A DNA stretch of 64,000 nucleotides from Thermodesulfobacteriota bacterium (GTDB lineage Bacteria; Desulfobacterota; Desulfarculia; JACQYL01). The position numbers and the translations under genes are program-made. Numbering within the stretch: position 1 is the stretch's first letter; every line of letters starts with the position of its first letter. The stretch covers positions 4,576,001-4,640,000 of the forward strand of contig CAXXLZ010000002.1 of NCBI GenBank assembly GCA_963675595.2. The letters are read 5' to 3'. Of the stretch, positions 15,935 to 27,853 are shown one piece after another. Below the pieces are notes generated by a model, which saw only the letters and a list, made by a program, of their open reading frames with translations, made no database searches and had not been told where the DNA came from.

Positions 15935-18703
15935 ATGCCGCGGCTTCTTATACACTTTGATGTGGAATTCATCCCGCGCCCCTTTTCAGGAATGGATACG
16001 TCCATGTGTGAAAACCTCTTCAATCGAATCAAGGCAGTCAAGCCCGATTGTTTCGGAGCCGGCCGGCGATTGTTCGGTTTCCTGGTAAGGGGATGGGTGT
16101 ACGGGTTGATCCTTCTGGCGGTGGTTTCGGTTTCGGCGGGATCGCCGTCGAGTGCCGGTGCCGTCAACGGCGGCAAACACGATTCGACCCTCAAAGTACT
16201 GCCCGGAGAGCACGGAAGCGATCAAGGAAAGTCTTCGACAAAGGATGGAAGCACAGAGGCCAAGCCTGTGCGTTCCTCTTCGGAGAGCGAAGACCGAAAG
16301 CATGACGCAAGGTCGTTCGAAGCGACTCTCTCGGGTCAAGGGTGGGTGGACTTCTCGGGGGGCGGCTTTTCCCTGAAGAGCCTGAACGTGGATTTCGGCA
16401 GGTTCGGGGGGCTTACCGGAAGGCTGTCCGTGGAAGCGGGGCAAGCGCCCCAAGGCAAAGTCGATGCCCGTTTGTCGAAACCCGGCGAGCTCGTGGAGCT
16501 GTTTTCCTTCCTCATTCCCGAAGGGCTGCGGGGATTCTGCATGGATGGAGACATCCGAATTCTCGCGGAATGGGCGGATGATCCACCTCGAATGTCCGCC
16601 GAATTGAACTGCGACGGAGCACGGATCTTCCGTTCCTCCGACGGACTTGATGTTCGGTTCACGGGGAACGTCCGATGGACCCGCGCGCTTTCCGAGGACG
16701 GGGAATTCGATTTCAGGGTGGATGGTCGAGGTGATTTTCAGTGGCGAGATATCCGTTTGGCGGGTACGCGGATTTCGGGCAACTGGCGCCGAGAAGGTGG
16801 TGAAACGCGGCTGGAGCGGATGCGTCTGCAGATCGAACCGGAGAGAGTAACGTTTAAGGGGAAGCCTTTTCCTTTGGAGCGCGTCGATCTGGACACCGAT
16901 TTTCAACGACTTGAAAATGGCGCCGTGCGGGTTCGGCGTCTGATTTTTTCCGAAAAACAGTTGGGCGAGATCCAAGGGGCCTTCGTCGTGCATCCCCGAA
17001 CCTTGGAGGAAAGTTCCGGCTCTCTTCGAGCCGAGAACCTCGCGCTGGGTCGTGTCCTTCGCTGGATCGCCGCGATCACGGGGTGGGAGCTTGGTGGGGT
17101 GGAGGTCTCCGGGCGAGGCGATTTGGCCGTTCGTCTCATGCCGGACCGGAATAGTCGGAAGCTTTCCGCATCCCTGCGTTGGAAGGACCTGGCTTTCTCG
17201 TCCGCGGACGGCAACCTGATGGCGGAGGGCGCTCAAGGTGAAATCAGCGCTTCCCTTGGCCCGGGTACGGACAGGCCCTTTGCGATCGAAGCGAAGTCGT
17301 ACCGGGGGCAACTCCTGGCCGGCACCGTCTTCCTGGATTTGGCGAATGCTCCTTTCAGCTTCCGAGGAGCGGGAAATCTGTCCGCTCAGAGCTCAATGGA
17401 GGATTTCTCCGCCGAACTGAGCTTTGAGAAGCTGATCCGACTGAACCTGAGTCGTGCATCGTGCGGGAGGACGCCCGAAGGACTCAGGTATTCCGGTGAC
17501 CTGAGCATCAAGAATCCCGACCTGCCGAAGCTCCTGGACCTGCTGGTGAAACAACCCATGGCAATCAGCCGGCCCGGCGTCTCCGAATTGGAGGTCGGCG
17601 GAGACCTGGAACTCGGCTGCCGTTTTCAAGGAACACCGGAAAGCCTCAGGATTGTTGGGCGGTTGGACCTCAGCAATCTGAACGCTTCTTATCCCGCTTC
17701 GGAATTCTCCGCCCGGAACCTTCAACTGGAACTTCCCTTTCATTATGTTTTCGGGGGCTCGCCTGACGAGCCTCCCGAACTTCCGCCCGAGCGTTGGGGT
17801 AGACTGGCGTGCGACGAATTGAGCGTGGGTTCCCAGATCCGCATGCCCCTCCGTCTGTCCGTCGCCATGGTCCCGAACCTATTTTTGGTGAAAGAGGATC
17901 TCGACCTGCCCGTGATGGGCGGCAAAGTCATTTTGTCCCACATGGTAGTGAAGGAACCTCTCTCAAAAGGCTATGAGGCTTCCATGGCCGCACGGATCGA
18001 AAGTCTCGATCTCGCCCGATTCGGATCGGCGTCTTTTCCCCTGGAAGGGACTCTCAACGGAGACTTTCCCGCAACGAGCCTGAGCGCCAAGAAATTGCAG
18101 GCATTGGGTCGCGTATCCGGCCGGGTATTCGGAGGCGAATTGACGGCACGGAATTTCGAAATTGCGCGTCCCCTTTCCCAAGGGCGGGTCCTGGGAGTTG
18201 AAGAGGCCCGACTACGACTCGCGGATCTGGAACGCATGACCCAAGCCTTGCAGGTCGGCAAGGTTTTGGGTCGAGTAGACGCCCAATTACAGGGATTTCA
18301 GATGGCCTATGGTCAACCGGCGGCTTTTCAACTGAAGGTCGAATCCGTGCCTGTGGACGATGTTCCTCGCAAGATCAGCTTGGAGGCGGTGAATTCCATA
18401 TCCGTGGTGGGAACCGGGAGCGGTATCGGCAACGCGGGAGTCAATATATTCGCTTCGTTTTTTGATGAGTTCCGGTATCAGTCCATCGGAATTTCCTGCA
18501 GTCTCAAGAACGACGTTTTTCGTGTCCGAGGACTTATCCATGACGGGGGCGTCGAATATCTGGTTAAACGGCCTCCGCTGTTCGGTATCAATGTGATTAA
18601 CCGAAATCCCGATAACCGGATATCGTTTTCTGATATGATGGAACGGATCCGACGTATTCGAAGCGATTCCAAGAAGAAAGGAGCGACCGATGAAAAGGAA
18701 TAA
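15935..18703 (+). CDS. YdbH/AsmA-like intermembrane bridge protein (true start probably slightly downstream)
   Basis: N-terminal TM segment, long Gly/hydrophobic beta-rich body, C-terminal FRYQSIGISCSLKND...INVINRNP; next to a YdbL-like gene. Confidence 0.65.
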   Translation: MPRLLIHFDVEFIPRPFSGMDTSMCENLFNRIKAVKPDCFGAGRRLFGFLVRGWVYGLILLAVVSVSAGSPSSAGAVNGGKHDSTLKVLPGEHGSDQGKSSTKDGSTEAKPVRSSSESEDRKHDARSFEATLSGQGWVDFSGGGFSLKSLNVDFGRFGGLTGRLSVEAGQAPQGKVDARLSKPGELVELFSFLIPEGLRGFCMDGDIRILAEWADDPPRMSAELNCDGARIFRSSDGLDVRFTGNVRWTRALSEDGEFDFRVDGRGDFQWRDIRLAGTRISGNWRREGGETRLERMRLQIEPERVTFKGKPFPLERVDLDTDFQRLENGAVRVRRLIFSEKQLGEIQGAFVVHPRTLEESSGSLRAENLALGRVLRWIAAITGWELGGVEVSGRGDLAVRLMPDRNSRKLSASLRWKDLAFSSADGNLMAEGAQGEISASLGPGTDRPFAIEAKSYRGQLLAGTVFLDLANAPFSFRGAGNLSAQSSMEDFSAELSFEKLIRLNLSRASCGRTPEGLRYSGDLSIKNPDLPKLLDLLVKQPMAISRPGVSELEVGGDLELGCRFQGTPESLRIVGRLDLSNLNASYPASEFSARNLQLELPFHYVFGGSPDEPPELPPERWGRLACDELSVGSQIRMPLRLSVAMVPNLFLVKEDLDLPVMGGKVILSHMVVKEPLSKGYEASMAARIESLDLARFGSASFPLEGTLNGDFPATSLSAKKLQALGRVSGRVFGGELTARNFEIARPLSQGRVLGVEEARLRLADLERMTQALQVGKVLGRVDAQLQGFQMAYGQPAAFQLKVESVPVDDVPRKISLEAVNSISVVGTGSGIGNAGVNIFASFFDEFRYQSIGISCSLKNDVFRVRGLIHDGGVEYLVKRPPLFGINVINRNPDNRISFSDMMERIRRIRSDSKKKGATDEKE

Positions 18704-19283
18704 ATGGCTGTTCATGGGACTGGCGGCCCTGCTCGCGGCCTGTGTTACGGTGAATATTTATTTCCCCGCGGCGGAGGTGGAACGCGCGGCGGACAAGATC
18801 GTGGACGATGTGTATGGAGTGAAGCCCACGGGAAACGGTGACGAAAAGGGAAAACCCGATGGACCTTCCCAAGGATCCTTGATACGGCTTCTGGCCGAGT
18901 TCCTGGAACCTGCGGACGCCCATGCTCAGGAGGCCGTTAGTGTAAGCAATGCGACGATTCGGGGGCTCAAGAATCAACTTGGGGAGAACCACAGGCAACT
19001 GAGGCCATTTTACGATCAGGGTAATGTGGGGATCGATCGGAACGGGTACCTTGTCCTTCGTGACACCCAAGGCCTGCCGCTTCAGCAGCTCGCCCTGCTC
19101 AAGCGTCTCGTGAACGAAGACAATAGTCTCAGGAAACAACTTTACAGGGAAGTCGCCAAGGCTTTGAACGTTGCTTCAGACCAAGTAGACCGTATCGAAG
19201 CGATCTTCGCCGGACACTGGAGGCAAAAAGCCTTATCCGGGTGGTGGGTCCAGCGGGACGACGGTTCCTGGGTCCGCAATTAA
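18690..19283 (+). CDS. YnbE/YdbL-like (DUF1318) lipoprotein
   Basis: Lipobox LAAC-VTVNIYFPA; LVNEDN..R..LY..VA; FA..W...A..GWWVQ..DG.W. Confidence 0.82.
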   Translation: MKRNKWLFMGLAALLAACVTVNIYFPAAEVERAADKIVDDVYGVKPTGNGDEKGKPDGPSQGSLIRLLAEFLEPADAHAQEAVSVSNATIRGLKNQLGENHRQLRPFYDQGNVGIDRNGYLVLRDTQGLPLQQLALLKRLVNEDNSLRKQLYREVAKALNVASDQVDRIEAIFAGHWRQKALSGWWVQRDDGSWVRN

Positions 19284-19585
19284 CACGGGGTTGCGTAAAT
19301 GGAATACCGGGGGTGCGGACGACCCAGCGTGCCCGGGATATTCCGGAAAACTCCTGCGCATGGTGGTAACGTCCGCGGGGGAGTGCCCGGGTTGGATCGA
19401 GAGGAGGCTCTGCGGGTGTTTGCGCGCCGTTGCCTTTTTCCCAAAGGTGACCAAGTTCCGCATATGCACATCGGTGCATATCCGCATCGGTCCACCAAAT
19501 CCGGGGGCGTTGGAATGCCCTCCGCCTTGCCGGGGAGCCTTCCAAGGACGGAGTGTTTACGGACTCAACCAAGCTTGATGGGACC

Positions 19586-20848
19586 ATGTATCTCTTTCTG
19601 ATCTCTTTTCTCATCACATACGGAACTCTTCATTTATACTTTTACAGGAACTTCGTTCGTTCTCGACCTCGGAGGTTCAAGGGGCGACGTGCGTTGGTCG
19701 TCGCCTTGATCATAGGGGTCTTCTCTCCGGTATTGGTCAACCTCTCCCTTCGCTTGGAAAACCGTCTTCTGACCCAGTGCCTCGCCTATGCCGGCTACCT
19801 TTGGATGGCCGGGCTGTTTCTGCACTGCTGCCTGTATGCTTGTTACGACACGCTCCGGTTTTCCACGAGAGCGTTGTCGACGTTTTTTTCCGGGGTAAAG
19901 GGGATCGGCAACCATAACGGCCTGTTCCCGGTCGTATCTTTGACGGTGGTCTGTATCCTGGGCTTTGGGGGATTCGAAGCCCGGCACATTCGTAAGGAAA
20001 CCGTGCGTCTGGAAACCTCGAAACTGCCGCCGGGCGTGGATCGTATTCGTATCGTCCAGGTATCCGATATTCATTTCAGCACGATCAACAACGAATATTT
20101 CGCCGAAGAAGTTGCCGGGCTTCTGAAGAGTCTGAATCCGGATATACTGGTTTCCACGGGTGATCTGATCGACCGGGGCTTATTCGATCGGCGGCGTGTC
20201 GCCGATTTGTTACGGAATTTGGAGACCCCCCTGGGAAAATATGCCGTTGCTGGAAATCATGAGTTCTATGCCGGGCTTGACGACGCCTTGAATTTCACGG
20301 AAAGGGCCGGGTTCAGGGTCTTGCGGAACGAGGCGGTTCGGGTTCATGGTCTTGTGACCGTGGTGGGGGTGGACGATCCGGCCGGAGCCCGCATGGGTCT
20401 GCCTCCGCCCGATGAAAAAGGGGCTTTTTCGGAGGTGCGCGGGGATCTGTACACCTTGCTGCTGAAGCATCGGCCGCGGGTGAATTCCGACACTGTCGGG
20501 CGGTTTGATCTGCAGCTTTCCGGACACACCCACGACGGCCAGATCTTCCCATTCAAGCTTGTTACCGCGATCTTCTATCCTTACATCCGAGGCTTCTTCA
20601 GTTTGGCCGAAGGGGGGGCGCTCTACGTGAGCCGAGGCACCGGCACCTTCGGCCCGCCGGTTCGGTTCCTGGCGCCGCCCGAGGTGACGGTCATAGACCT
20701 GGAGACCGTTCAGGCGGGGGCCGCATCTCGCGACGGGAGTCACGCATGGGGGCGGAGCGTGAGCTTGGATCGAAGGTCCATGAAATCGCGTAAGGAAGGC
20801 CTGTTTGGGACCGGGGACCATCCTGCTTCATCGAACCCGCCACAATGA
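19586..20848 (+). CDS. Membrane-anchored metallophosphoesterase (YkuE/YaeI-like)
   Basis: N-terminal TM segments; SDIH, TGDLID, GNHE, SGHTHDGQ, YVSRGTG. Confidence 0.92.
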   Translation: MYLFLISFLITYGTLHLYFYRNFVRSRPRRFKGRRALVVALIIGVFSPVLVNLSLRLENRLLTQCLAYAGYLWMAGLFLHCCLYACYDTLRFSTRALSTFFSGVKGIGNHNGLFPVVSLTVVCILGFGGFEARHIRKETVRLETSKLPPGVDRIRIVQVSDIHFSTINNEYFAEEVAGLLKSLNPDILVSTGDLIDRGLFDRRRVADLLRNLETPLGKYAVAGNHEFYAGLDDALNFTERAGFRVLRNEAVRVHGLVTVVGVDDPAGARMGLPPPDEKGAFSEVRGDLYTLLLKHRPRVNSDTVGRFDLQLSGHTHDGQIFPFKLVTAIFYPYIRGFFSLAEGGALYVSRGTGTFGPPVRFLAPPEVTVIDLETVQAGAASRDGSHAWGRSVSLDRRSMKSRKEGLFGTGDHPASSNPPQ

Positions 20849-20885
20849 TTCACGATTCACCACATCGCACGGGCGCTTCTTCAAA

Positions 20886-22166
20886 TTACTTCTCGGATGG
20901 GAAAACGACCCCCAACACCTGATCGATTCTCCTGAGTGAGCCCAGAACGAGCCGTCGCCGGACCGGTTCCAGAGCTCCCCTGCGCGCGGCATCCGCCAAC
21001 CCGGAGACTTCCTCGAGGAGACCGTCGAAGGCTCCCCGCACGTCGAGATCATCGTTCATGGCGTTCTCGAAAACATCGAGCAGCGAGGTCGCTTCAGGAC
21101 AAGTCGTCTCCTCCGGGAGAGAATCGGGCTCTTCGATGCCGGCAGAGAGGATATCCACCAACCCCCTGAAATCGTCCAGTTTCTTCGCCGCCCCCTCGAG
21201 TCCCTTGCCGGTTAGGTTCTTTCGGGACCTGTAGTGTCCATAAATCAAGAAGAATCTCAGGTGCTCGGGACGGTATCCGTTCTTGGTGAAATCCTCGATG
21301 TAGACGATGTTTCCCTTGCTCTTGGACATCTTGGCGCCGTCAACGAGCAGATGCTCGCCATGAAGCCAGAACCGGGAGAAGGTTCGCTTTGAGAGCGCTT
21401 CCATTACGGCGATGGTGTAGTCGTGGTGACGGAAAAGGTTGTCCACCCCGCCGCACGCCACGTCGATCTCGAAACCCAGATATTCGGCGATGATGGCTGG
21501 ATCCTGGATGTTCCAGGAGGGCCTCCCTCTGCCGATGGAGGTGTCCCAAGCGGGTTCCCCGACCTTGGCGGAGCCGTGCCACAAAATGAAATCGCCCAGG
21601 TTCCATCGTTGTCCGGGATACGTGTCCTTGCGAAATCGGACTTTTTTCTTGGGCCAGCGAGACATGTCCAACCCAAAAAGTTTACCGAATCCCTCGAATT
21701 TCAGAGGGTCAAAAAAAATGTCCCCTTGGTGACGGTAGGCGTAACCTTCATCCATGAGCCTTTGGACCAAGCGAGCGGCTTCCTGGACGTTTGTGGAGGC
21801 TCGGTGAATCAAGCCGGGCAGTTGAATCCTCAGGCGGGAACTTTCCTCAAAGAATTTTTCTTCGACGGGGTCGACCAATTCCCGAACGGAAAGGCTCTTC
21901 TCCTTGGCTTCGGCAATAGCTTTGTCCTCAACGTCCGTGAAATTGATGACGCGATGTACCCGGTATCCAAGGTACTCGAGGTACCGTTGGAGGACATCTT
22001 CGAAAAGGAAGGTTCGATAGTTGCCCAGGTGCGGCCTGCGGTACACGGAAGGGCCGCAGGTGAACATTTTTACCGAATTGTCCTCTCTAGGGGAGAAGAG
22101 TTCCTTGGTTCGCGTCAGGGTGTTGTTCAGTCGGAGTGAAGGCCTCCGGGAGTCCGGATTCAGCAT
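20886..22166 (-). CDS. Cysteinyl-tRNA synthetase paralogue (atypical active site, no anticodon-binding domain)
   Basis: TCGPSVY..HLGN, NFTDVEDK, DFILW, GRPSW, KMSKSKGN, AMNDDLD; WHIEC is replaced by WNIQD. Confidence 0.85.
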   Translation of the reverse strand: MLNPDSRRPSLRLNNTLTRTKELFSPREDNSVKMFTCGPSVYRRPHLGNYRTFLFEDVLQRYLEYLGYRVHRVINFTDVEDKAIAEAKEKSLSVRELVDPVEEKFFEESSRLRIQLPGLIHRASTNVQEAARLVQRLMDEGYAYRHQGDIFFDPLKFEGFGKLFGLDMSRWPKKKVRFRKDTYPGQRWNLGDFILWHGSAKVGEPAWDTSIGRGRPSWNIQDPAIIAEYLGFEIDVACGGVDNLFRHHDYTIAVMEALSKRTFSRFWLHGEHLLVDGAKMSKSKGNIVYIEDFTKNGYRPEHLRFFLIYGHYRSRKNLTGKGLEGAAKKLDDFRGLVDILSAGIEEPDSLPEETTCPEATSLLDVFENAMNDDLDVRGAFDGLLEEVSGLADAARRGALEPVRRRLVLGSLRRIDQVLGVVFPSEK

Positions 22167-22775
22167 GGTTGCTCCTCATGGAGTTTGACGATGGAAATCT
22201 ATGAAACGGAGCGCCGGCTCAACAGTCCGTTTAAAAGGTCCGATTATTGCGGGCCGGTGGAAAACGATGACACGCTGGGCGCCCAAATCCCGTACAACGA
22301 GCAATACATCCAAGTGCGTCGCAGTGACGTGACGAGAGATGCGGCGCAATGAGGTAGATCGCGCCTGTATCAGTCCGTCAACACGGCCTTGGTGAAAGCC
22401 CCACCGGATTCGACGCCTGCCGCAAGTGAAAACCGCGAGAGGATGTCTTGACGTTGATGGGTAAGAAGCCCTCCGAAAAAGATTGACCACCAGTTTAGCA
22501 TACTCCCGCCGTCATGCCAGTACTTCTATGTTGGGACGTCGAATACGAGCCTCCGGTGTTAAGCACATGAACCGAGGTCGAGCCTGCGATGCACGCGTTC
22601 GGCCCGTTTCCTCAACCGACCCGGTTGCACGCGGCGGAATCCTGATCTGTTTGCTTCGAGTACAGGTTTAAGAGGCCGGATATCCGTTGGATACCCGATA
22701 TCTTCTCCGCTCGGTGTGCGTTAATTTGCAATCTATCGAAAAAGTTGATTCGTTGCCGTGAGAAAGGAAAGGGTT

Positions 22776-22967
22776 ATGCCGATTTATTCCTATGCTTGTC
22801 CGAACTGCGGATTGGAAGAGAGCCGTATCGCCGGAGTGGACGACCGTACCGTGAAATGCACCGGATGTGATCAAGATATGCGTCGAATGACCTCCGATGA
22901 GGATTTGTTTCGGGCCTACTGGGAAACCAGCGATTCCCGAATTGGACGACGGATGGAGAAAAACTGA
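22776..22967 (+). CDS. FmdB-family zinc-ribbon protein
   Basis: MPIYSYACPNCG...CTGC; SD AAGGA upstream. Confidence 0.8.
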   Translation: MPIYSYACPNCGLEESRIAGVDDRTVKCTGCDQDMRRMTSDEDLFRAYWETSDSRIGRRMEKN

Positions 22968-23163
22968 GGATATCCACGCACGGCCGGCCATAATTTCTTC
23001 CACGATTGCATCGTGATCTCCCATGATTAAAATTTTTGTGAGGGCGATGCCCTTAAGAATGCGCTTCGTTCATACGGCGGAGCCGCAGAAGAGCTAGCCG
23101 ATCCGCCTCTGTGCGGTCGGCTGTGAGTGCTGAACGGTTACATCGAGAAAGGAGGTCGTTCAA

Positions 23164-23613
23164 ATGACGGTACCATCCATCAAGAAAAGGAGACCTTTCT
23201 GGATGACGCCCTTCGGAAGGGAGCCATGGGGAGATCTTTGGACCGATCGTTTGTGGCCGGAATGGCCGAGATACGGCGGCGACGAGTTCATACCGGTTTC
23301 CAACTTCTATGAGAAAGACGGCAAGTTTTTTCTGACCGCCGAACTCCCCGGTGTGAAACGGGAGGATATCGGCATCGATATCGACAGCAACGTGGTGACC
23401 ATCTCCGGTAAGCGCCAGTCGGAAAAGGAAGAAGAAGGAGCGGACTACTATTTGAAGGAATCGGCCTACGGTTCTTTTTCCAAGTCTTACCGTCTGCCTG
23501 CGGAGATCGAGGAGGACAAGGTCGAGGCGACGTTCAAGGACGGAGTCCTGAAGGTCGTCATGCCGCATAAGGAAGCGCCGACAAGAAAGAAAATCGAGAT
23601 TACCGAGAAATAG
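23164..23613 (+). CDS. Small heat-shock protein Hsp20
   Basis: AELPGV..EDI, YGSFSKSYRLP, ATFKDGVLKV. Confidence 0.95.
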   Translation: MTVPSIKKRRPFWMTPFGREPWGDLWTDRLWPEWPRYGGDEFIPVSNFYEKDGKFFLTAELPGVKREDIGIDIDSNVVTISGKRQSEKEEEGADYYLKESAYGSFSKSYRLPAEIEEDKVEATFKDGVLKVVMPHKEAPTRKKIEITEK

Positions 23614-23616
23614 ATG

Positions 23617-23646
23617 CATTCCGCCGGGCTGAAGCCCGGCGGAATG
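23617..23646. other. Perfect GC-rich hairpin after hsp20 (transcript stabiliser or terminator-like)
   Basis: CATTCCGCCGGGC-TGAA-GCCCGGCGGAATG, 13-bp stem, no U-tract. Confidence 0.6.
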
Positions 23647-23688
23647 GTCGTCCCCCATGAATTCGTAAGATAAGGAAGGAGTCGCTTC

Positions 23689-23874
23689 ATGAAGGTAAAG
23701 GTGGACGCGAATGTATGTGCAGGCACGGGCAATTGCGAAGCTACCTGCCCAAAGGTATTCGAAGTGAAGGGAGGCGTTTCGCAGGTGATCGCCGACCCGG
23801 TACCCCGGGATCAGGAAGATTGTGCTCGTTCCGCCGTGGATGGGTGCCCCACGGGTGCCATCTCCATTGTTTAG
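23689..23874 (+). CDS. Single-cluster ferredoxin (CxxTxxC type)
   Basis: VDANVCAGTGNCEATCPKVF...GCPTGAI; SD AAGGAG. Confidence 0.9.
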   Translation: MKVKVDANVCAGTGNCEATCPKVFEVKGGVSQVIADPVPRDQEDCARSAVDGCPTGAISIV

Positions 23875-24074
23875 GCGTCCGGCCTTGAAGCGTTTCCCCT
23901 CCTTTTGATGGATTCAAAGACTCTTTCAGATCAATGGTGTATGTAGTCCCGGGGGGGGCGTCCCCCCAATCACCCCTCCGTGCTCTCTCCCTTTCTGTTT
24001 CACCCAAAGTAACGCCGCAAAAGCTTCCGCTGTTTTCAGGAGACCGAGTAACCATGGAGGTACCGGCCACCACT

Positions 24075-24103
24075 TTGACAGTGTGTGCGCGATGCATCAC
24101 AAT
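24075..24103 (+). promoter_or_regulatory. Putative sigma-70 promoter of the PAS sigma-54 activator gene
   Basis: TTGACA-N17-CACAAT. Confidence 0.5.
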
Positions 24104-24207
24104 GCTATGAGGATGTGCACGAATTCGGTTCTTGGTCGATTTCCCGCTCGGTGGGGGAGCACCGCTCCATCCAAGAGGGCGGATTGAGGCCCTGGGAGGG
24201 CGCCGTC

Positions 24208-25590
24208 ATGGCCGAAGCTTCAAAAATGACTCCAAAGACCGACGCCACTACCGAGGCCATCCTGGAAAGCATTTCGGATGGTGTTTTCACGGTGGACTCG
24301 GAGTGGCGCATTACCTCGTTCAATCGAGCGGCCGAGCAGATCACCGGAGTGGCGCGCTCCGACGCTCTGGGACGTCGCTGTTCGGAGGTGTTTCGTTCCA
24401 ACATGTGCACGACGGCCTGCGCGCTGCATGAAACATTGAAGACGGGCAAGCCGATCATCGGTAAATCCGGATTCATCATCGATTCGGAAGGAGAACGGAT
24501 TCCCATCAGCGTTTCCACGGCGGTGCTGCGAAATGCTCGAGGACAGGTCATCGGGGGAGCCGAGACCTTCCGCGATTTGAGCGAAATCGAGGCCTTGCGC
24601 AGAGAACTGGAAGGCCGGTTCCGCGTGGGCGACCTTGTAAGTCATAGTCCCTTGATGCAGAGAGTGTTCGAGGTGCTGCCCGCCGTGGCGGTGAGCCCGA
24701 GTACGGTGCTGATCCTGGGAGAGACCGGCACCGGCAAGGAATTGGTGGCCAGGACCATCCACGATCTGAGCACCCGCAGGGAAGGTCCGTTTGTGGCCGT
24801 GAACTGCGGTGCGCTTCCGGACACGCTTCTTGAATCCGAACTTTTCGGGTACAAGGCCGGAGCCTTTACGGGAGCCGGCAAAGACAAGCCCGGGCGTTTC
24901 GCGTTGGCTCAAGGGGGCACCCTCTTGCTGGATGAAATCGGCGAGGTCAGTCCCGCACTTCAGGTAAGACTCCTCCGAGTGTTGCAGGAACACAAATATG
25001 AACCGCTGGGCTCCGTTCGATCCGAGAATTCCGACGCCCGCATCATTGCGGCCACGAACAAAGACTTGTCGGAACAGGTGCGCAAAAGGGAATTTCGAGA
25101 AGACCTGTACTACCGGGTAAACGTAGTCAGGATCGAACTGCCCCCGCTGCGACGCCGAAAAGAGGATATTCCCCTCTTGGTGGAGGAGTTCATCAAACGC
25201 TTCAATCGACTGCAGGGGAAGTCCGTGGAAGGAGTATCATCCGAGGCCTTCTCTCTGCTGATGGCGCACGACTGGCCCGGAAATGTGCGTGAATTGGAAA
25301 ACGCCGTGGAGCGAGCCTTCGTGCTGTGCAAAGAAGGTTTGATCTCCGTCTCCCATCTTCCCGAGGAACTGACCGCCCACGGCGCGGTCTTGTCTCCCTC
25401 CTCCCAAATCCGTGCGGCCCATGATCTTCTGGATGCCCAGGCCATCCGCACTGCATTGGAGCGGAACCATTACAACCGCACCGCGGCGGCGAGAGAGCTG
25501 GGAATTCATAAGACTACGCTTTTTCGCAGGATCAAGAAGCTGGGCCTCACCCTGCCTCATGCGGATGGGCGTTCGACACACAGAGAGTAG
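24208..25590 (+). CDS. PAS-domain sigma-54 enhancer-binding protein (OrpR-like)
   Basis: PAS with CSEVFRSNMCTTAC (CX8CX3C); GETGTGKE, ESELFG..GAFTGA, LDEIGE, WPGNVREL, Fis-type HTH. Confidence 0.93.
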   Translation: MAEASKMTPKTDATTEAILESISDGVFTVDSEWRITSFNRAAEQITGVARSDALGRRCSEVFRSNMCTTACALHETLKTGKPIIGKSGFIIDSEGERIPISVSTAVLRNARGQVIGGAETFRDLSEIEALRRELEGRFRVGDLVSHSPLMQRVFEVLPAVAVSPSTVLILGETGTGKELVARTIHDLSTRREGPFVAVNCGALPDTLLESELFGYKAGAFTGAGKDKPGRFALAQGGTLLLDEIGEVSPALQVRLLRVLQEHKYEPLGSVRSENSDARIIAATNKDLSEQVRKREFREDLYYRVNVVRIELPPLRRRKEDIPLLVEEFIKRFNRLQGKSVEGVSSEAFSLLMAHDWPGNVRELENAVERAFVLCKEGLISVSHLPEELTAHGAVLSPSSQIRAAHDLLDAQAIRTALERNHYNRTAAARELGIHKTTLFRRIKKLGLTLPHADGRSTHRE

Positions 25591-25635
25591 CGTTATTGCT
25601 ACCATGAAGTGCTCATTAAGTAGCGGAAATGCTAC
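25587..25635. promoter_or_regulatory. Tandem upstream activating sequences (enhancer) for the sigma-54 promoter
   Basis: GTAGC-GTTATT-GCTAC (25587-25602) and GTAGC-GGAAAT-GCTAC (25620-25635), 33 bp apart. Confidence 0.75.
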
Positions 25636-25719
25636 TAATGGTCCCCCCTCGTTCCCCTGCCGATAGGAAAATTATCATCTAATTCCATGGGTTGTCAGCT
25701 TCTATGTGCTCTTCCGGCG

Positions 25720-25736
25720 CCGGCACAATAAATGCT
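25720..25736 (+). promoter_or_regulatory. Sigma-54 (-24/-12) promoter
   Basis: CCGGCACAATAAATGCT: GG(25722-3)-N10-GC(25734-5). Confidence 0.75.
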
Positions 25737-25770
25737 TCATAAGAAGGCATCATTCGGAAGGAGCGACGGG

Positions 25771-26379
25771 ATGACGACAGCGGCGTTTGCGGCCTGGAAA
25801 AATCGAGTGGCACCGGTCTTCGACGTGATTGAGGAGATTCATCTCGTGGAGGCACAAGCGGGACGAATCCTTCGGGAGACCAGAGAGTCGGCGGCGGCGT
25901 CCCTACCGGTGGAACGGGTACTGCGTCTTGTGCAACTGCGCGTGGATACGTTGGTGTGCGGGGCGATCTCCAGGGGCCTGCACGCCATGATCGCCGCTTA
26001 CGGCATCCGGGTCATCCCCTTCGTCGCCGGTGATCTGAACAAAGTGATTCACGCTTGGCTGGGGGGGAAGTTGGAGTCTCCGGCCTTTGCCATGCCGGGT
26101 TGTTTTGGGCGAGGTCCTCGCCGGCTCAGGCCCAAGAACGGCAACCGTGGGGAGGAACATTTCATGATCGGGAAAAAAGGAACGGGAAGCGGCCAGGGGG
26201 GCGGACGCGGCCAAGGCGCGGGAGGTCAAGGAATGGGCCGAATGGGAGGTCGCATGGCGGCCGGTCCGTGCGGTTTCTGTGTGTGTGCGCAATGTGGCCG
26301 CAAAGAACCCCACAAACGGGGCGTACCTTGTCAAGAATTACGGTGCTCGGAGTGCGGCGCCGTAATGGTCAGAGAATAA
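25771..26379 (+). CDS. NifB/NifX-family protein with Gly-rich linker and C-terminal Cys-rich zinc-ribbon
   Basis: RVAPVFD, LVCGAIS, IPFVAG, FAMPGC; C-terminal CVCAQCG..EPH.RGVPC...CSECG; ATG 25771 follows SD AAGGAG. Confidence 0.85.
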   Translation: MTTAAFAAWKNRVAPVFDVIEEIHLVEAQAGRILRETRESAAASLPVERVLRLVQLRVDTLVCGAISRGLHAMIAAYGIRVIPFVAGDLNKVIHAWLGGKLESPAFAMPGCFGRGPRRLRPKNGNRGEEHFMIGKKGTGSGQGGGRGQGAGGQGMGRMGGRMAAGPCGFCVCAQCGRKEPHKRGVPCQELRCSECGAVMVRE

Positions 26380-26416
26380 CCGAGTAATCGTCATCTCAAC
26401 CATGGAGGACTGAAAA

Positions 26417-26794
26417 ATGCCAAGAGGAGACGGAACGGGACCCATGGGAATGGGTTCGATGACCGGACGCGCCGCAGGGCGGTGCGCGGGTTATGGAATG
26501 CCCGGGTACGCGAGTCGTCCGTACGCGGGTGGTTTCGCCGGAGGTTTCGGACGAGGCGGGGGATTCGGCGGCGGAGGACGTGCCTGGATGTGCCGGCGCT
26601 CGGGTCCCGGCTTTTCGGGATGGGCCGGATTCGGTCGAGGTGCGGGCCCTTATGCGTATGCGGGAGCCTACGGGAGGCCGGACCCTGAGACCGAGTCGCA
26701 GGTCTTAAGGGATCAAGCCGATGCCTTGCGGGCGGAACTGGATTTCATTGAAAAGCGGCTTTCGGAAATGAGCGCTCGATCCGACCGCGACTAG
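26417..26794 (+). CDS. DUF5320-family Gly-rich protein
   Basis: MPRGDGTGPMGMGSMTGRAAGRC, Gly/Arg-rich middle, C-terminal coiled coil. Confidence 0.88.
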   Translation: MPRGDGTGPMGMGSMTGRAAGRCAGYGMPGYASRPYAGGFAGGFGRGGGFGGGGRAWMCRRSGPGFSGWAGFGRGAGPYAYAGAYGRPDPETESQVLRDQADALRAELDFIEKRLSEMSARSDRD

Positions 26795-26854
26795 CGGACG
26801 CGCGTCCCGCCGCATGCAATGCGGCGGGCGGGCAAAAGCCGGACGGAAGAAGTG

Positions 26855-27853
26855 ATGAAAACCATCGGATTTCGGCATGTGTACGGGCCCGTGCCTTCGA
26901 GGCGCCTGGGGCGATCTCTCGGGGTCGATCTGGTGCCGTACAAGACCTGCACCTTTGACTGTATTTATTGTCAACTGGGGCGGACGACGAACAGGACACT
27001 GCAACGGCGGTACTACGTGCCTGCGGAAGAGATTCTTGAAGAGCTCGATAGGAAGTTGTCCGAAGGGAATCCGCCTGATTACGTCACGCTCGCGGGTTCG
27101 GGGGAGCCCACCCTCCACAGCGGTTTGGAGGAAATCATTCGTAGAGTCAAAGCCTTAACGTCGGTTCCCGTTGTCGTGCTGACCAACGGATCACTGCTGT
27201 GGATGACCGAAGTCCGTGACGCCCTCATGGAGGCCGATGTGGTCGTGCCCTCATTGGACGCCGGGGATGAAGTGGGCTTTCGCAAAGTCAACCGACCGGT
27301 GGCCGGCATCCGATTCCATCAGATGGTGGAGGGTATGATTTCGTTCACTCGGCGCTTTTCGGGCGAGGTATGGTTGGAGGTTTTTCTCCTGGAAGGAATC
27401 AACGACTCCCCGGTCGAAGTTGGAAAGATGGCCAAAACGGCACAACGTATGGGGCCGACGAGAATTCAACTGAACACGGTGGCGAGGCCCCCCGCGGAGC
27501 GTTTTGCGCGGCCGGTTTCTTCGGATCGGTTGCAGGAGCTGAAGGCGTTGTTTCCGGGTCGGGTGGAAATCGTTTGTGATGTTGCGCCGGCCGGCTCTGC
27601 CTTATCGACCCTTTCGGGGGCGCGGGATGCGGAAATCCGAGCCTTGTTGCATCGGCGCCCCTGCACGGCCGGCGATGTTGCCGCGGGTTTGGGCATTCAC
27701 ATGGCGGAAGTGCTCAAGCACCTGAGTTGCCTGGTGGACGCCGGTGAAGTGAAGGCGGTGGATGTGAGCGGGGACACGTTCTATCTGGCCGTTGACCTCC
27801 TCGCCGGATCAGCGTTGGAGCCGGAGAAAACGGAGACGGGCAAAGAGGGGTGA
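26855..27853 (+). CDS. Radical SAM Fe-S oxidoreductase (COG0731-like) with C-terminal HTH-like region
   Basis: YGPVPSRRLGRSLGVD, CTFDCIYCQLG, GSGEPTL, LTNGSL. Confidence 0.9.
   Translation: MKTIGFRHVYGPVPSRRLGRSLGVDLVPYKTCTFDCIYCQLGRTTNRTLQRRYYVPAEEILEELDRKLSEGNPPDYVTLAGSGEPTLHSGLEEIIRRVKALTSVPVVVLTNGSLLWMTEVRDALMEADVVVPSLDAGDEVGFRKVNRPVAGIRFHQMVEGMISFTRRFSGEVWLEVFLLEGINDSPVEVGKMAKTAQRMGPTRIQLNTVARPPAERFARPVSSDRLQELKALFPGRVEIVCDVAPAGSALSTLSGARDAEIRALLHRRPCTAGDVAAGLGIHMAEVLKHLSCLVDAGEVKAVDVSGDTFYLAVDLLAGSALEPEKTETGKEG

Follow-up and report, generated by a model that had tools for sequence, protein, structure and literature searches.

Why would a bacterium that already carries a canonical gene for cysteinyl-tRNA synthetase (CysRS) keep a shortened second version of it, with a remodelled active site and no anticodon-binding domain? 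The question is raised by a gene in a 64,000-nucleotide stretch of DNA from a Thermodesulfobacteriota bacterium (contig CAXXLZ010000002.1, positions 4,576,001 to 4,640,000), here called the window, in which the gene occupies positions 20886..22166 on the minus strand. To judge from its sequence, the shortened paralogue is probably a working enzyme with a role outside ordinary protein synthesis; it belongs to a discrete family that is under purifying selection and is not a decaying copy. An original prediction had presented it as a candidate ligase that activates a substrate other than free cysteine, or relies on another metal geometry, and passes its substrate to an unusual acceptor, an interpretation that the results below support in part. 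The features of the gene are as follows.

20886..22166, minus strand: coding sequence of the 426-aa CysRS paralogue, stop codon included, with an ATG start (from the list of open reading frames, ORFs)
22172..22177, minus strand: GAGGAG, a Shine-Dalgarno-like hexamer 5 nt 5' of the ATG, read from the sequence
22056..22058, minus strand: codon of C37, the kept metal-ligand cysteine in TCGPS, equivalent to E. coli C28 (alignment to 1li5)
22020..22031, minus strand: HLGN, residues 46-49, the HIGH-type ATP motif (alignment)
21567..21686, minus strand: rebuilt CP1 acceptor loop, residues 161-200, GKLFGLDMSRWPKKKVRFRKDTYPGQRWNLGDFILWH (conservation and charge)
21501..21527, minus strand: GRPSWNIQD, residues 214-222, with W218 kept and E. 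coli H206, E208 and C209 replaced by N219, Q221 and D222 (alignment to 1li5)
21414..21464, minus strand: DVACGGVDNLFRHHDYT, residues 235-251, with C238, R246 (canonical Pro), H247 (E. coli H234), D249, Y250 and T251 (E. coli E238)
21318..21332, minus strand: KMSKS, residues 279-283 (alignment)
20886..21191, minus strand: C-terminal helical bundle, residues 326-426, and the end of the protein (helices of the AlphaFold2, AF2, model)

The protein matches PF01406 (tRNA-synt_1e; E 2.3e-76, residues 24-326; Pfam) and scores 303.6 bits with the cysS model TIGR00435, under its 340-bit equivalog cut-off, and 186.8 bits with the MshC model TIGR03447, for which the cut-off is 485.1 bits (both NCBIfam). 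Its best solved relatives by sequence are CysRS structures (8qhp, E 1.6e-70; also 3tqo, and E. coli 1li5 at E 3.1e-57), and the MshC structures 8hfm and 3c8z match at E 2.7e-42. The AF2 model is confident (pLDDT of 92.7, pTM of 0.93) and was aligned by Foldseek with TM scores of 0.83-0.85 to CysRS structures, against 0.78-0.80 to MshC (8hfn, 8hfm and 3c8z). As had been predicted, the anticodon-binding domain is absent: no match to PF23493 or PF09190 was found in Pfam at E ≤ 0.1, the alignment to the genome's own canonical CysRS stops at about residue 426 of the latter's 495, leaving ~70 residues, and the model, with helices at 320-341, 357-370, 376-395 and 401-418, closes on the last of these. 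Canonical CysRS forms extend 55-105 residues beyond this end point. No sigma-70-like site was detected by a promoter scan of 20600-22900, and nothing credible as a leader RNA was returned by Rfam in 18000-26000, the sole match there being a snoRNA model at E 0.67.

The genome (6.79 Mb, three contigs) holds three CysRS-like genes, the paralogue included. A canonical cysS of 495 aa lies after gltX, scores 565.1 bits with TIGR00435 and displays HIGH, GWHIEC, FPHHENE, KMSKS and the anticodon domain; its presence in the same genome bears out the assignment of the gene in the window as a paralogue. The third gene, located outside the window (L002 1468-3867, minus strand; G000:C1 ~1084101-1086500), encodes a 799-aa fusion of PALP (CysK/CBS-like, PF00291) with a CysRS-like part, in which the zinc motifs GWHLQC and FPHHENE, DALR_2 and CysS_C are kept but HIGH and KMSKS read NLGT and KMSRS, respectively. 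Many genomes of the phylum sample have open frames of ~770-800 aa with a 31-36% match to the query, and one of 801 aa is present in G001 (L100). Canonical cysS was above the cut-off in all five of the other family-holding genomes tested, namely Desulfoferrobacter suflitae, a spirochaete, two Bathyarchaeia and an acidobacterium, and at least two CysRS-like matches were found in 6/6 family-holding genomes of the phylum sample.

Homologues were collected in two ways. A word-indexed search, in which 8000 candidates were scored, returned 4597 proteins at E ≤ 0.001, and the best 119 non-self homologues among them (55-61% identity, 407-498 aa), which bear the database names 'class I tRNA ligase family protein' or 'cysteinyl-tRNA synthetase', were aligned with the query (n = 120). 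An exhaustive representative search gave 16261 proteins at E ≤ 0.001, and counts of representatives refer to the best 150 of these. Conservation was counted in the 120-protein alignment and, in a second comparison, among 124 family members and 108 canonical representatives. The ATP motifs, described as intact in the original prediction, are indeed near-invariant in the family, with H46, G48 and N49 in 120/120 proteins and KMSKS almost equally fixed (K279 120/120, M280 119/120, S281 119/120, K282 120/120, S283 116/120); HxGN is also common among canonical CysRS representatives. These motifs and ~50 invariant columns persist at 55-60% overall identity, the segment DTYPGxRWNLGDFxLWH is near-invariant, and in all 120 aligned proteins the C-terminus lies at most a few residues from the helical bundle.

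Among the best 150 representatives the signature is all-or-none: they combine either WN[IV]QD, RHHDY[TN] and a short C-terminus or WH.EC and PHHENE. In a FastTree phylogeny of 141 rows, from which fragments <390 aa and proteins >620 aa were excluded, the signature-bearing rows, including the degenerate P0126 and P0185, form one clade with a support of 100; other short forms with canonical zinc motifs fall at the base of the canonical side, in a tree of a kind that is prone to joining long branches. Ratios of dN/dS (Nei-Gojobori) are available for the four pairs with unsaturated dS, most others being saturated and L023 being excluded for a stop within its match range, and amount to 0.22 (L009-L021), 0.18 (L009-L014), 0.23 (L014-L021) and 0.29 (L025-L041), well under the value of 1 that had been named as the mark of decay. 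In-frame stops occur inside the match at two loci, a TAG in G234:C140:52366-53580 and a TAA in G003:C3:371712-372965 (L096), which may mark pseudogenes, recoding or matches that extend beyond the stop. A search for longer forms revealed no fusion at E ≤ 1e-60, which is weak evidence owing to crowding, and the longer proteins among the near matches are early starts or read-through tails. In the ESM Atlas the family appears as a 190-member cluster, commonest in Spirochaetota and automatically named 'class I tRNA ligase family protein', alongside several further clusters of ~400-aa CysRS-like proteins.

HMMER alignment of the paralogue to E. coli CysRS (1li5) reproduced the motif pairing on which the original prediction was built. 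GRPSWNIQD (214-222) pairs with GRPGWHIEC (E. coli 201-209), placing D222 at C209; FRHHDYT (245-251) pairs with FPHHENE, with H234 kept as H247 and E238 replaced by T251; DVACGG (235-240) pairs with DIHGGG, and TCGPS with VCGIT, with C28 kept as C37. The zinc ligands of E. coli CysRS are reportedly C28, C209, H234 and E238, and two of the four members of this Cys/Cys/His/Glu site are thus kept in the paralogue (C37 and H247), the other two being replaced by D222 and T251. According to the portion of a review drawn on here, CysRS picks cysteine via a zinc-thiol contact (PMC7373986). The substitutions proved to be conserved throughout the family: D222 is present in 120/120 and 124/124 proteins, N219 in 119/120 and 123/124, Q221 in 119/120 and 124/124, and R246, H247, H248, D249 and Y250 in 120/120 and 124/124, with residue 251 being either T or N in every member (T 63 and N 57 of 120; T 64 and N 60 of 124). 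The position of E. coli H224, in DIHGGG, is A, S or C in 112/124 members, so that the predicted loss of this histidine stands; the accompanying 'new' cysteine does not, C238 being present in 118/120 and 121/124 family proteins yet also in 15/108 canonical representatives.

Equally informative is what has been retained. Residue C37 is present in 120/120 aligned proteins, 124/124 family members and 108/108 canonical representatives, and the positions conserved at ≥90% in both sets are C37, G38, H46, G48, T77, D78, W218, D242, H247, H248, K279, M280, K282 and S283. We take these shared residues to comprise the ATP site, the contacts to the alpha-amino group and two metal ligands, and the equivalent of W218 presumably packs on the thiolate in CysRS. 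By contrast, 14 positions are fixed in the family (≥95%) and otherwise fixed in canonical CysRS (≥80%), among them R246 (Pro), D249 (Glu) and Y250 (Asn); N219, Q221 and D222 are likewise fixed differently, a contrast that is circular at 219, 221 and 222 inasmuch as the canonical set was chosen by the WH.EC motif.

Aspartate at the C209 position is also found in 4/118 representatives of at least 445 aa (P0174, P0207, P0222 and P0223), in which H206, E208, E238 and a tail of 56-62 residues are kept and, in two of the four, a Cys occupies the N237 position. Together with P0260, these proteins constitute a CysRS clade with GWHIED, in which HHECE is present in two members and HHEAE in the rest, and in which KMSKS is degenerate (EMHKS, RMGKS) in two; the clade suggests that zinc-ligand swapping may occur in otherwise full-length CysRS. 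A short CysRS-like protein, P0224 (405 aa), presents an intermediate pocket, AEPAWNVQC ... CFNHHENT, with N206, Q208 and T238 as in the family and C209 kept, and its tree neighbours are short forms with canonical zinc motifs.

Zinc sites built as a Cys/Asp/His triad are well known to bind the thiolates of substrates, protein farnesyltransferase being one example. The C37/D222/H247 triad and W218 are compatible with such a thiolate-binding metal site, and the changes in the pocket therefore do not establish that the substrate is not cysteine. Because C37, H247 and W218 are invariant, a retained three-ligand metal-thiolate site would be the simplest explanation of the pocket, and cysteine, or a close thiol or selenol analogue, is placed slightly ahead of a different substrate. 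That the enzyme activates something other than cysteine, as originally predicted, is accordingly not supported in that form, given the invariance of C37, H247, W218 and T77 and the aspartate at C209 in four full-length CysRS.

The most marked change outside the pocket is one of charge. The family has a median isoelectric point (pI) of 8.86 and a net charge of +6 (n = 123), compared with 5.93 and -9 in the canonical enzymes (n = 100); a further nine short forms that lack the anticodon domain and have canonical zinc motifs are equally basic (pI 8.85). The gain resides mainly in the CP1 loop, residues 161-200 (median net charge +7 versus +1 in canonical CysRS), with smaller gains in the SC-fold and the helical bundle. 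This loop is the best-conserved segment of the family (mean column conservation 0.85) and contains W171, P172 and G185 as insertions relative to canonical CysRS. In the sections of Mukai et al. 2017 used here, the CP1 loop of CysRS is described as reading the acceptor stem's first base pair (PMC5389517).

The distribution of the family is broad and sparse. Members at 45-59% identity occur in Syntrophobacteraceae, Desulfobacterales, Desulfobulbaceae, Desulfohalobiaceae, Spirochaetales, Leptospirales, Bathyarchaeia, Acidobacteriota and Gemmatimonadota, and copies are present in 6/300 evenly drawn genomes of the phylum sample (47-57% identity, the next-best match being 39%) and in 1/40 relatives (59% identical, at E ≤ 1e-100). 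No family copy was detected on plasmids in PLSDB, where the best tblastn match shows 38% identity to ordinary cysS. So uneven an occurrence, in more than one domain, suggests that the gene is self-sufficient and has been passed on horizontally.

A comparison of 42 family loci and the window (43 loci, 587 ORFs) revealed no neighbour common to different lineages; the best non-self cluster, of histidine kinase/response regulator type, was present at 10/43 loci in varying positions. In a Pfam census of 148 flanking proteins from 38 loci, after 16 proteins from four lineage-duplicating loci had been dropped, the top families were found six times each, these being HATPase_c and, in a single deltaproteobacterial lineage, CNNM, CorC and CBS; no SelB-type family was among the 25 commonest. 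Local synteny is seen in Syntrophobacteraceae (HPF-CSD fusion, CorC, small GTPase and aminotransferase) and in one spirochaete lineage (L045, L046, L047, L048 and L054), where a gene for a 121-aa glyoxalase/VOC protein lies ~25 nt 3' of the paralogue at 5/5 loci, genes for a YbaK-like tRNA_edit protein, a nitrilase and a methyltransferase lie upstream, and a block of cysE-like, cysK-like, nifU and nifS genes lies on the opposite strand. In the window itself the paralogue converges on a gene for a membrane metallophosphoesterase (19553-20848), and a divergent Zn-ribbon gene ~590 bp away is followed by Hsp20 and ferredoxin genes. Further off, a plus-strand segment (24085-27853) comprises a PAS/sigma-54 activator gene (24085-25590) and three ORFs, encoding a 215-aa Cys/Gly-rich protein with no Pfam match, a 125-aa Gly-rich protein and a radical-SAM protein carrying an HTH at its C-terminus (26819-27853); on the other side (15935-19283, plus strand), a 922-aa ORF with no Pfam match at E ≤ 1e-4 overlaps a DUF1318 lipoprotein-like gene at the latter's start.

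Since no partner is conserved and the family extends across bacterial phyla and Bathyarchaeia, its substrates are likely to be universal ones. Taken with the absence of partners and with interdomain transfer of the gene, the conserved, Lys/Arg-rich CP1 loop points to a universal polyanion as the putative acceptor, most simply the 3' end of an RNA. The earlier step from the missing anticodon domain to a non-tRNA acceptor is weak, as the enzyme termed CysRS* also lacks that domain and, in the parts of its description cited here (PMC5389517), is proposed to charge a tRNA, and as the CP1 loop is basic and conserved. Loss of the anticodon domain is no proof of independence from tRNA.

We propose, tentatively and at somewhat less than an even chance, that the paralogue works without regard to an anticodon, adenylating cysteine or one of its close analogues and passing it on to RNA or another polyanionic acceptor. 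It would be an active accessory class I aminoacyl-adenylate-forming enzyme derived from a CysRS of the HxGN type. Its ATP would be bound via HLGN and KMSKS, and cysteine, or a close thiol or selenol analogue, would be held at a remodelled three-ligand metal site (C37, D222 and H247), where the thiolate would pack against W218 and the alpha-amino group would be fixed by T77 and G38. An aminoacyl-adenylate would then be made, and the aminoacyl group would be transferred without reading of an anticodon to a polyanion lying on the basic CP1 loop, the likeliest candidate being a tRNA, through its 3' end and acceptor stem, or else another RNA. Fold, motifs, charge pattern, conservation, paralogy, purifying selection and the missing partner genes rest on the data; we infer the retention of the metal and the identities of the amino acid and the acceptor.

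Several observations weigh against this proposal. Two of the four supposed zinc ligands are replaced, H206 has become N, E208 Q, P233 R and N237 Y, and with a pocket so altered a different substrate is quite possible. The basic loop could equally fit a phosphorylated small molecule or an acidic carrier protein. MshC, a tRNA-independent ligase, likewise lacks the anticodon domain and has the same fold, and architecture therefore cannot separate a tRNA from a non-tRNA reading. Finally, tRNA scans of the window, of 33 of the 42 family loci and of the genome's tRNA set yielded no candidate for a cognate RNA: the window and the scanned loci contain no tRNA gene, and the genome's set is ordinary apart from those for selenocysteine (Sec) and pyrrolysine (Pyl). 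ARAGORN identified one tRNA-SeC with G73 and one tRNA-Cys(GCA) with G1:C72, and RF01852 gave one strong match of 77 bits, the next (47.9 bits) scoring better as an ordinary tRNA (RF00005, 59.5 bits).

Some further candidate partners were sought in the genome and elsewhere. Supply of the anticodon domain in trans was rejected for this genome, where no stand-alone module is present and PF23493 matches only the canonical cysS and the PALP fusion gene. A tRNA-Pyl(CTA) is located at G000:C2:125847-125918 and a PylS C-terminal domain at G000:C2:161682-162401 (297.6 bits versus a cut-off of 178.15), and the genome may use both pyrrolysine and selenocysteine; a link to pyrrolysine was rejected, PylS being present in 0/10 other family-holding genomes. 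A SepRS route was rejected as well, with no SepRS in the genome (best match 27.6 bits versus a cut-off of 380.65).

An unlikely but serious alternative is that the paralogue is a tRNA-independent ligase of the MshC kind, which would adenylate cysteine and join it to a small-molecule amine, giving a new low-molecular-weight thiol or cysteinyl conjugate of anaerobes. The shared architecture without an anticodon domain, the structural and sequence matches to MshC given above, the canonical cysS that always stands alongside in the genomes tested, and the spirochaete VOC gene, with cysE-like, cysK-like, nifU and nifS genes nearby, would all suit such an enzyme, and a rebuilt CP1 loop could form a new acceptor pocket. 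However, the score with TIGR03447 is far below its cut-off, no glycosyltransferase, deacetylase, acetyltransferase or other partner recurs next to the gene, and the spirochaete synteny belongs to a single lineage; moreover, a strongly basic surface is unneeded for a neutral sugar acceptor, and single-gene spread across domains fits a multi-enzyme pathway poorly. No better placed is the view of the original prediction, that the pocket no longer binds cysteine at all, which we regard as improbable without dismissing it: another acid, probably polar or anionic, would be activated via R246, Y250, N219, Q221, T/N251 and H272 and passed to a tRNA, another RNA or another acceptor. In its favour are the 14 differently fixed positions, including R246, D249 and Y250, the T or N at 251 in place of the canonical Glu, the loss of the H224 histidine, and the replacement of H206 and E208 alongside C209, the last being contrasts of the circular kind noted above. 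Against it, C37, H247, H248, W218 and T77 are invariant, which is hard to explain if the metal-thiolate site had been abandoned, aspartate at C209 occurs in four full-length, tailed representatives, and Cys/Asp/His is itself known as a thiolate-binding zinc site.

Two other explanations carry little weight. A decaying or purely regulatory remnant without catalysis could be imagined from the scarcity of the family in the phylum sample and among the relatives, the in-frame stops in G234 and G003 and the degenerate P0126 and P0185, but this is very improbable given the low dN/dS, the persistence of the ATP motifs and of the ~50 invariant columns, and the confident model. Still harder to credit is identity with the published CysRS* (cysS*), which would charge a selenocysteine-like selC* tRNA(Cys)UCA, making UGA a codon for cysteine. 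What recommends it, from the parts of the two sources concerned, is that CysRS* lacks the anticodon domain, has a changed CP1 loop and has a Desulfobacterota host (PMC5389517; PMC9437257). Against this, neither the window nor the 33 scanned loci contain a tRNA gene, SelB-like proteins are missing from the top 25 census families, and the genome's tRNA-Sec (G73) and its ordinary tRNA-Cys(GCA) are single, a second selC-like gene being absent; the CP1 loop reads WPKK instead of PTVS, and the family also occurs in Bathyarchaeia and Spirochaetes, the comparison being made with the description of CysRS*.

Synthetase paralogues without an anticodon domain have repeatedly turned out to perform unexpected chemistry, for example in mycothiol synthesis, queuosine glutamylation, EF-P lysylation and UGA-to-Cys recoding. 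With a likelihood that we put close to even, if a little under it, the present family would be a minimal kind of anticodon-blind synthetase, spread by gene transfer among anaerobic bacteria and archaea, that charges the acceptor end of an RNA, for a purpose outside normal decoding, with cysteine, with an analogue of it (for instance homocysteine, selenocysteine or a persulfide) or with an acid other than cysteine, or else the missing cysteine ligase of a low-molecular-weight thiol of anaerobes. As a synthetase it would be the class I equivalent of GluQRS or GenX, equipped with a Cys/Asp/His metal site. Its members, conserved and under purifying selection, are found in sulfate reducers, syntrophs, spirochaetes and Bathyarchaeia. 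Solving its amino acid, metal and acceptor would reveal a new aminoacylation of RNA or of a small molecule in anaerobes, or recognition of cysteine by a Cys/Asp/His site, and would also mend the systematic mis-annotation of the family as cysS.

The known system closest to the paralogue is canonical CysRS (TIGR00435, PF01406; 8qhp, 1li5/1u0b and 3tqo; HxGN/TCGPT type), with which it shares the Rossmann core, CP domain, SC-fold and helical bundle, the HIGH-type and KMSKS motifs and the equivalents of C28, H234, H235, W205 and T68, at 32-40% identity and the TM scores of 0.83-0.85 given above. It differs in lacking the anticodon-binding domain, in scoring under the TIGR00435 cut-off, in being a second copy in every family-holding genome tested, in the six pocket changes (C209 to D, E238 to T or N, H206 to N, E208 to Q, P233 to R and N237 to Y) and in the inserted, basic CP1 loop, with a pI of ~8.9 versus 5.9. 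MshC (L-cysteine:GlcN-Ins ligase of mycothiol synthesis; TIGR03447; 3c8z, 8hfm) is likewise a CysRS paralogue without the anticodon domain, of ~410 aa, and keeps its second zinc cysteine, which is replaced in the paralogue. Identity with MshC is ruled out by the TIGR03447 score, the fold match being also slightly poorer than to CysRS, and the distinction between the two that had been predicted is upheld. As to hosts, those named for the family are Desulfobacterota, Spirochaetes, Bathyarchaeia, Acidobacteriota and Gemmatimonadota; the mycothiol pathway (mshA, mshB and mshD) with which MshC occurs is one of Actinomycetota.

CysRS* of Desulfococcus biacutus is, in the sections of its description that bear on the point, a form without the anticodon domain encoded in a selC*-selB*-cysS* locus, with the CP1 motif PTVS in place of MSGA (Mukai et al. 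2017, PMC5389517), and is reported in parts of the same and a second source to occur only in genomes with a selC* tRNA-Cys(UCA) bearing A1:U72 and U73 (PMC5389517; PMC9437257). On that partial description both it and the paralogue are accessory CysRS paralogues of Desulfobacterota with an altered CP1 loop; in contrast, the paralogue has no linked tRNA or SelB, no selC* in its genome, a remodelled metal pocket, and WPKK where PTVS aligns. The short proteins P0137, P0139, P0141, P0151 and P0205, which have canonical zinc motifs, appear to be better CysRS*-like candidates. A search of the full-text literature found only MshC and CysRS* as CysRS paralogues and nothing describing the WN[IV]QD/RHHDY signature, and the original prediction that the activity is uncharacterised agrees with the lack of any published characterisation in that literature. 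GluQRS/YadB, a truncated GluRS that glutamylates the queuosine of tRNA-Asp, resembles the paralogue in principle, as a stand-alone class I paralogue without an anticodon domain that acts on tRNA (PMC9437257, Table 1); it derives from another synthetase family, and no evidence points to a nucleoside target for the paralogue. On sequence grounds, then, what is new here is a family within a known kind, that of synthetase paralogues without an anticodon domain.

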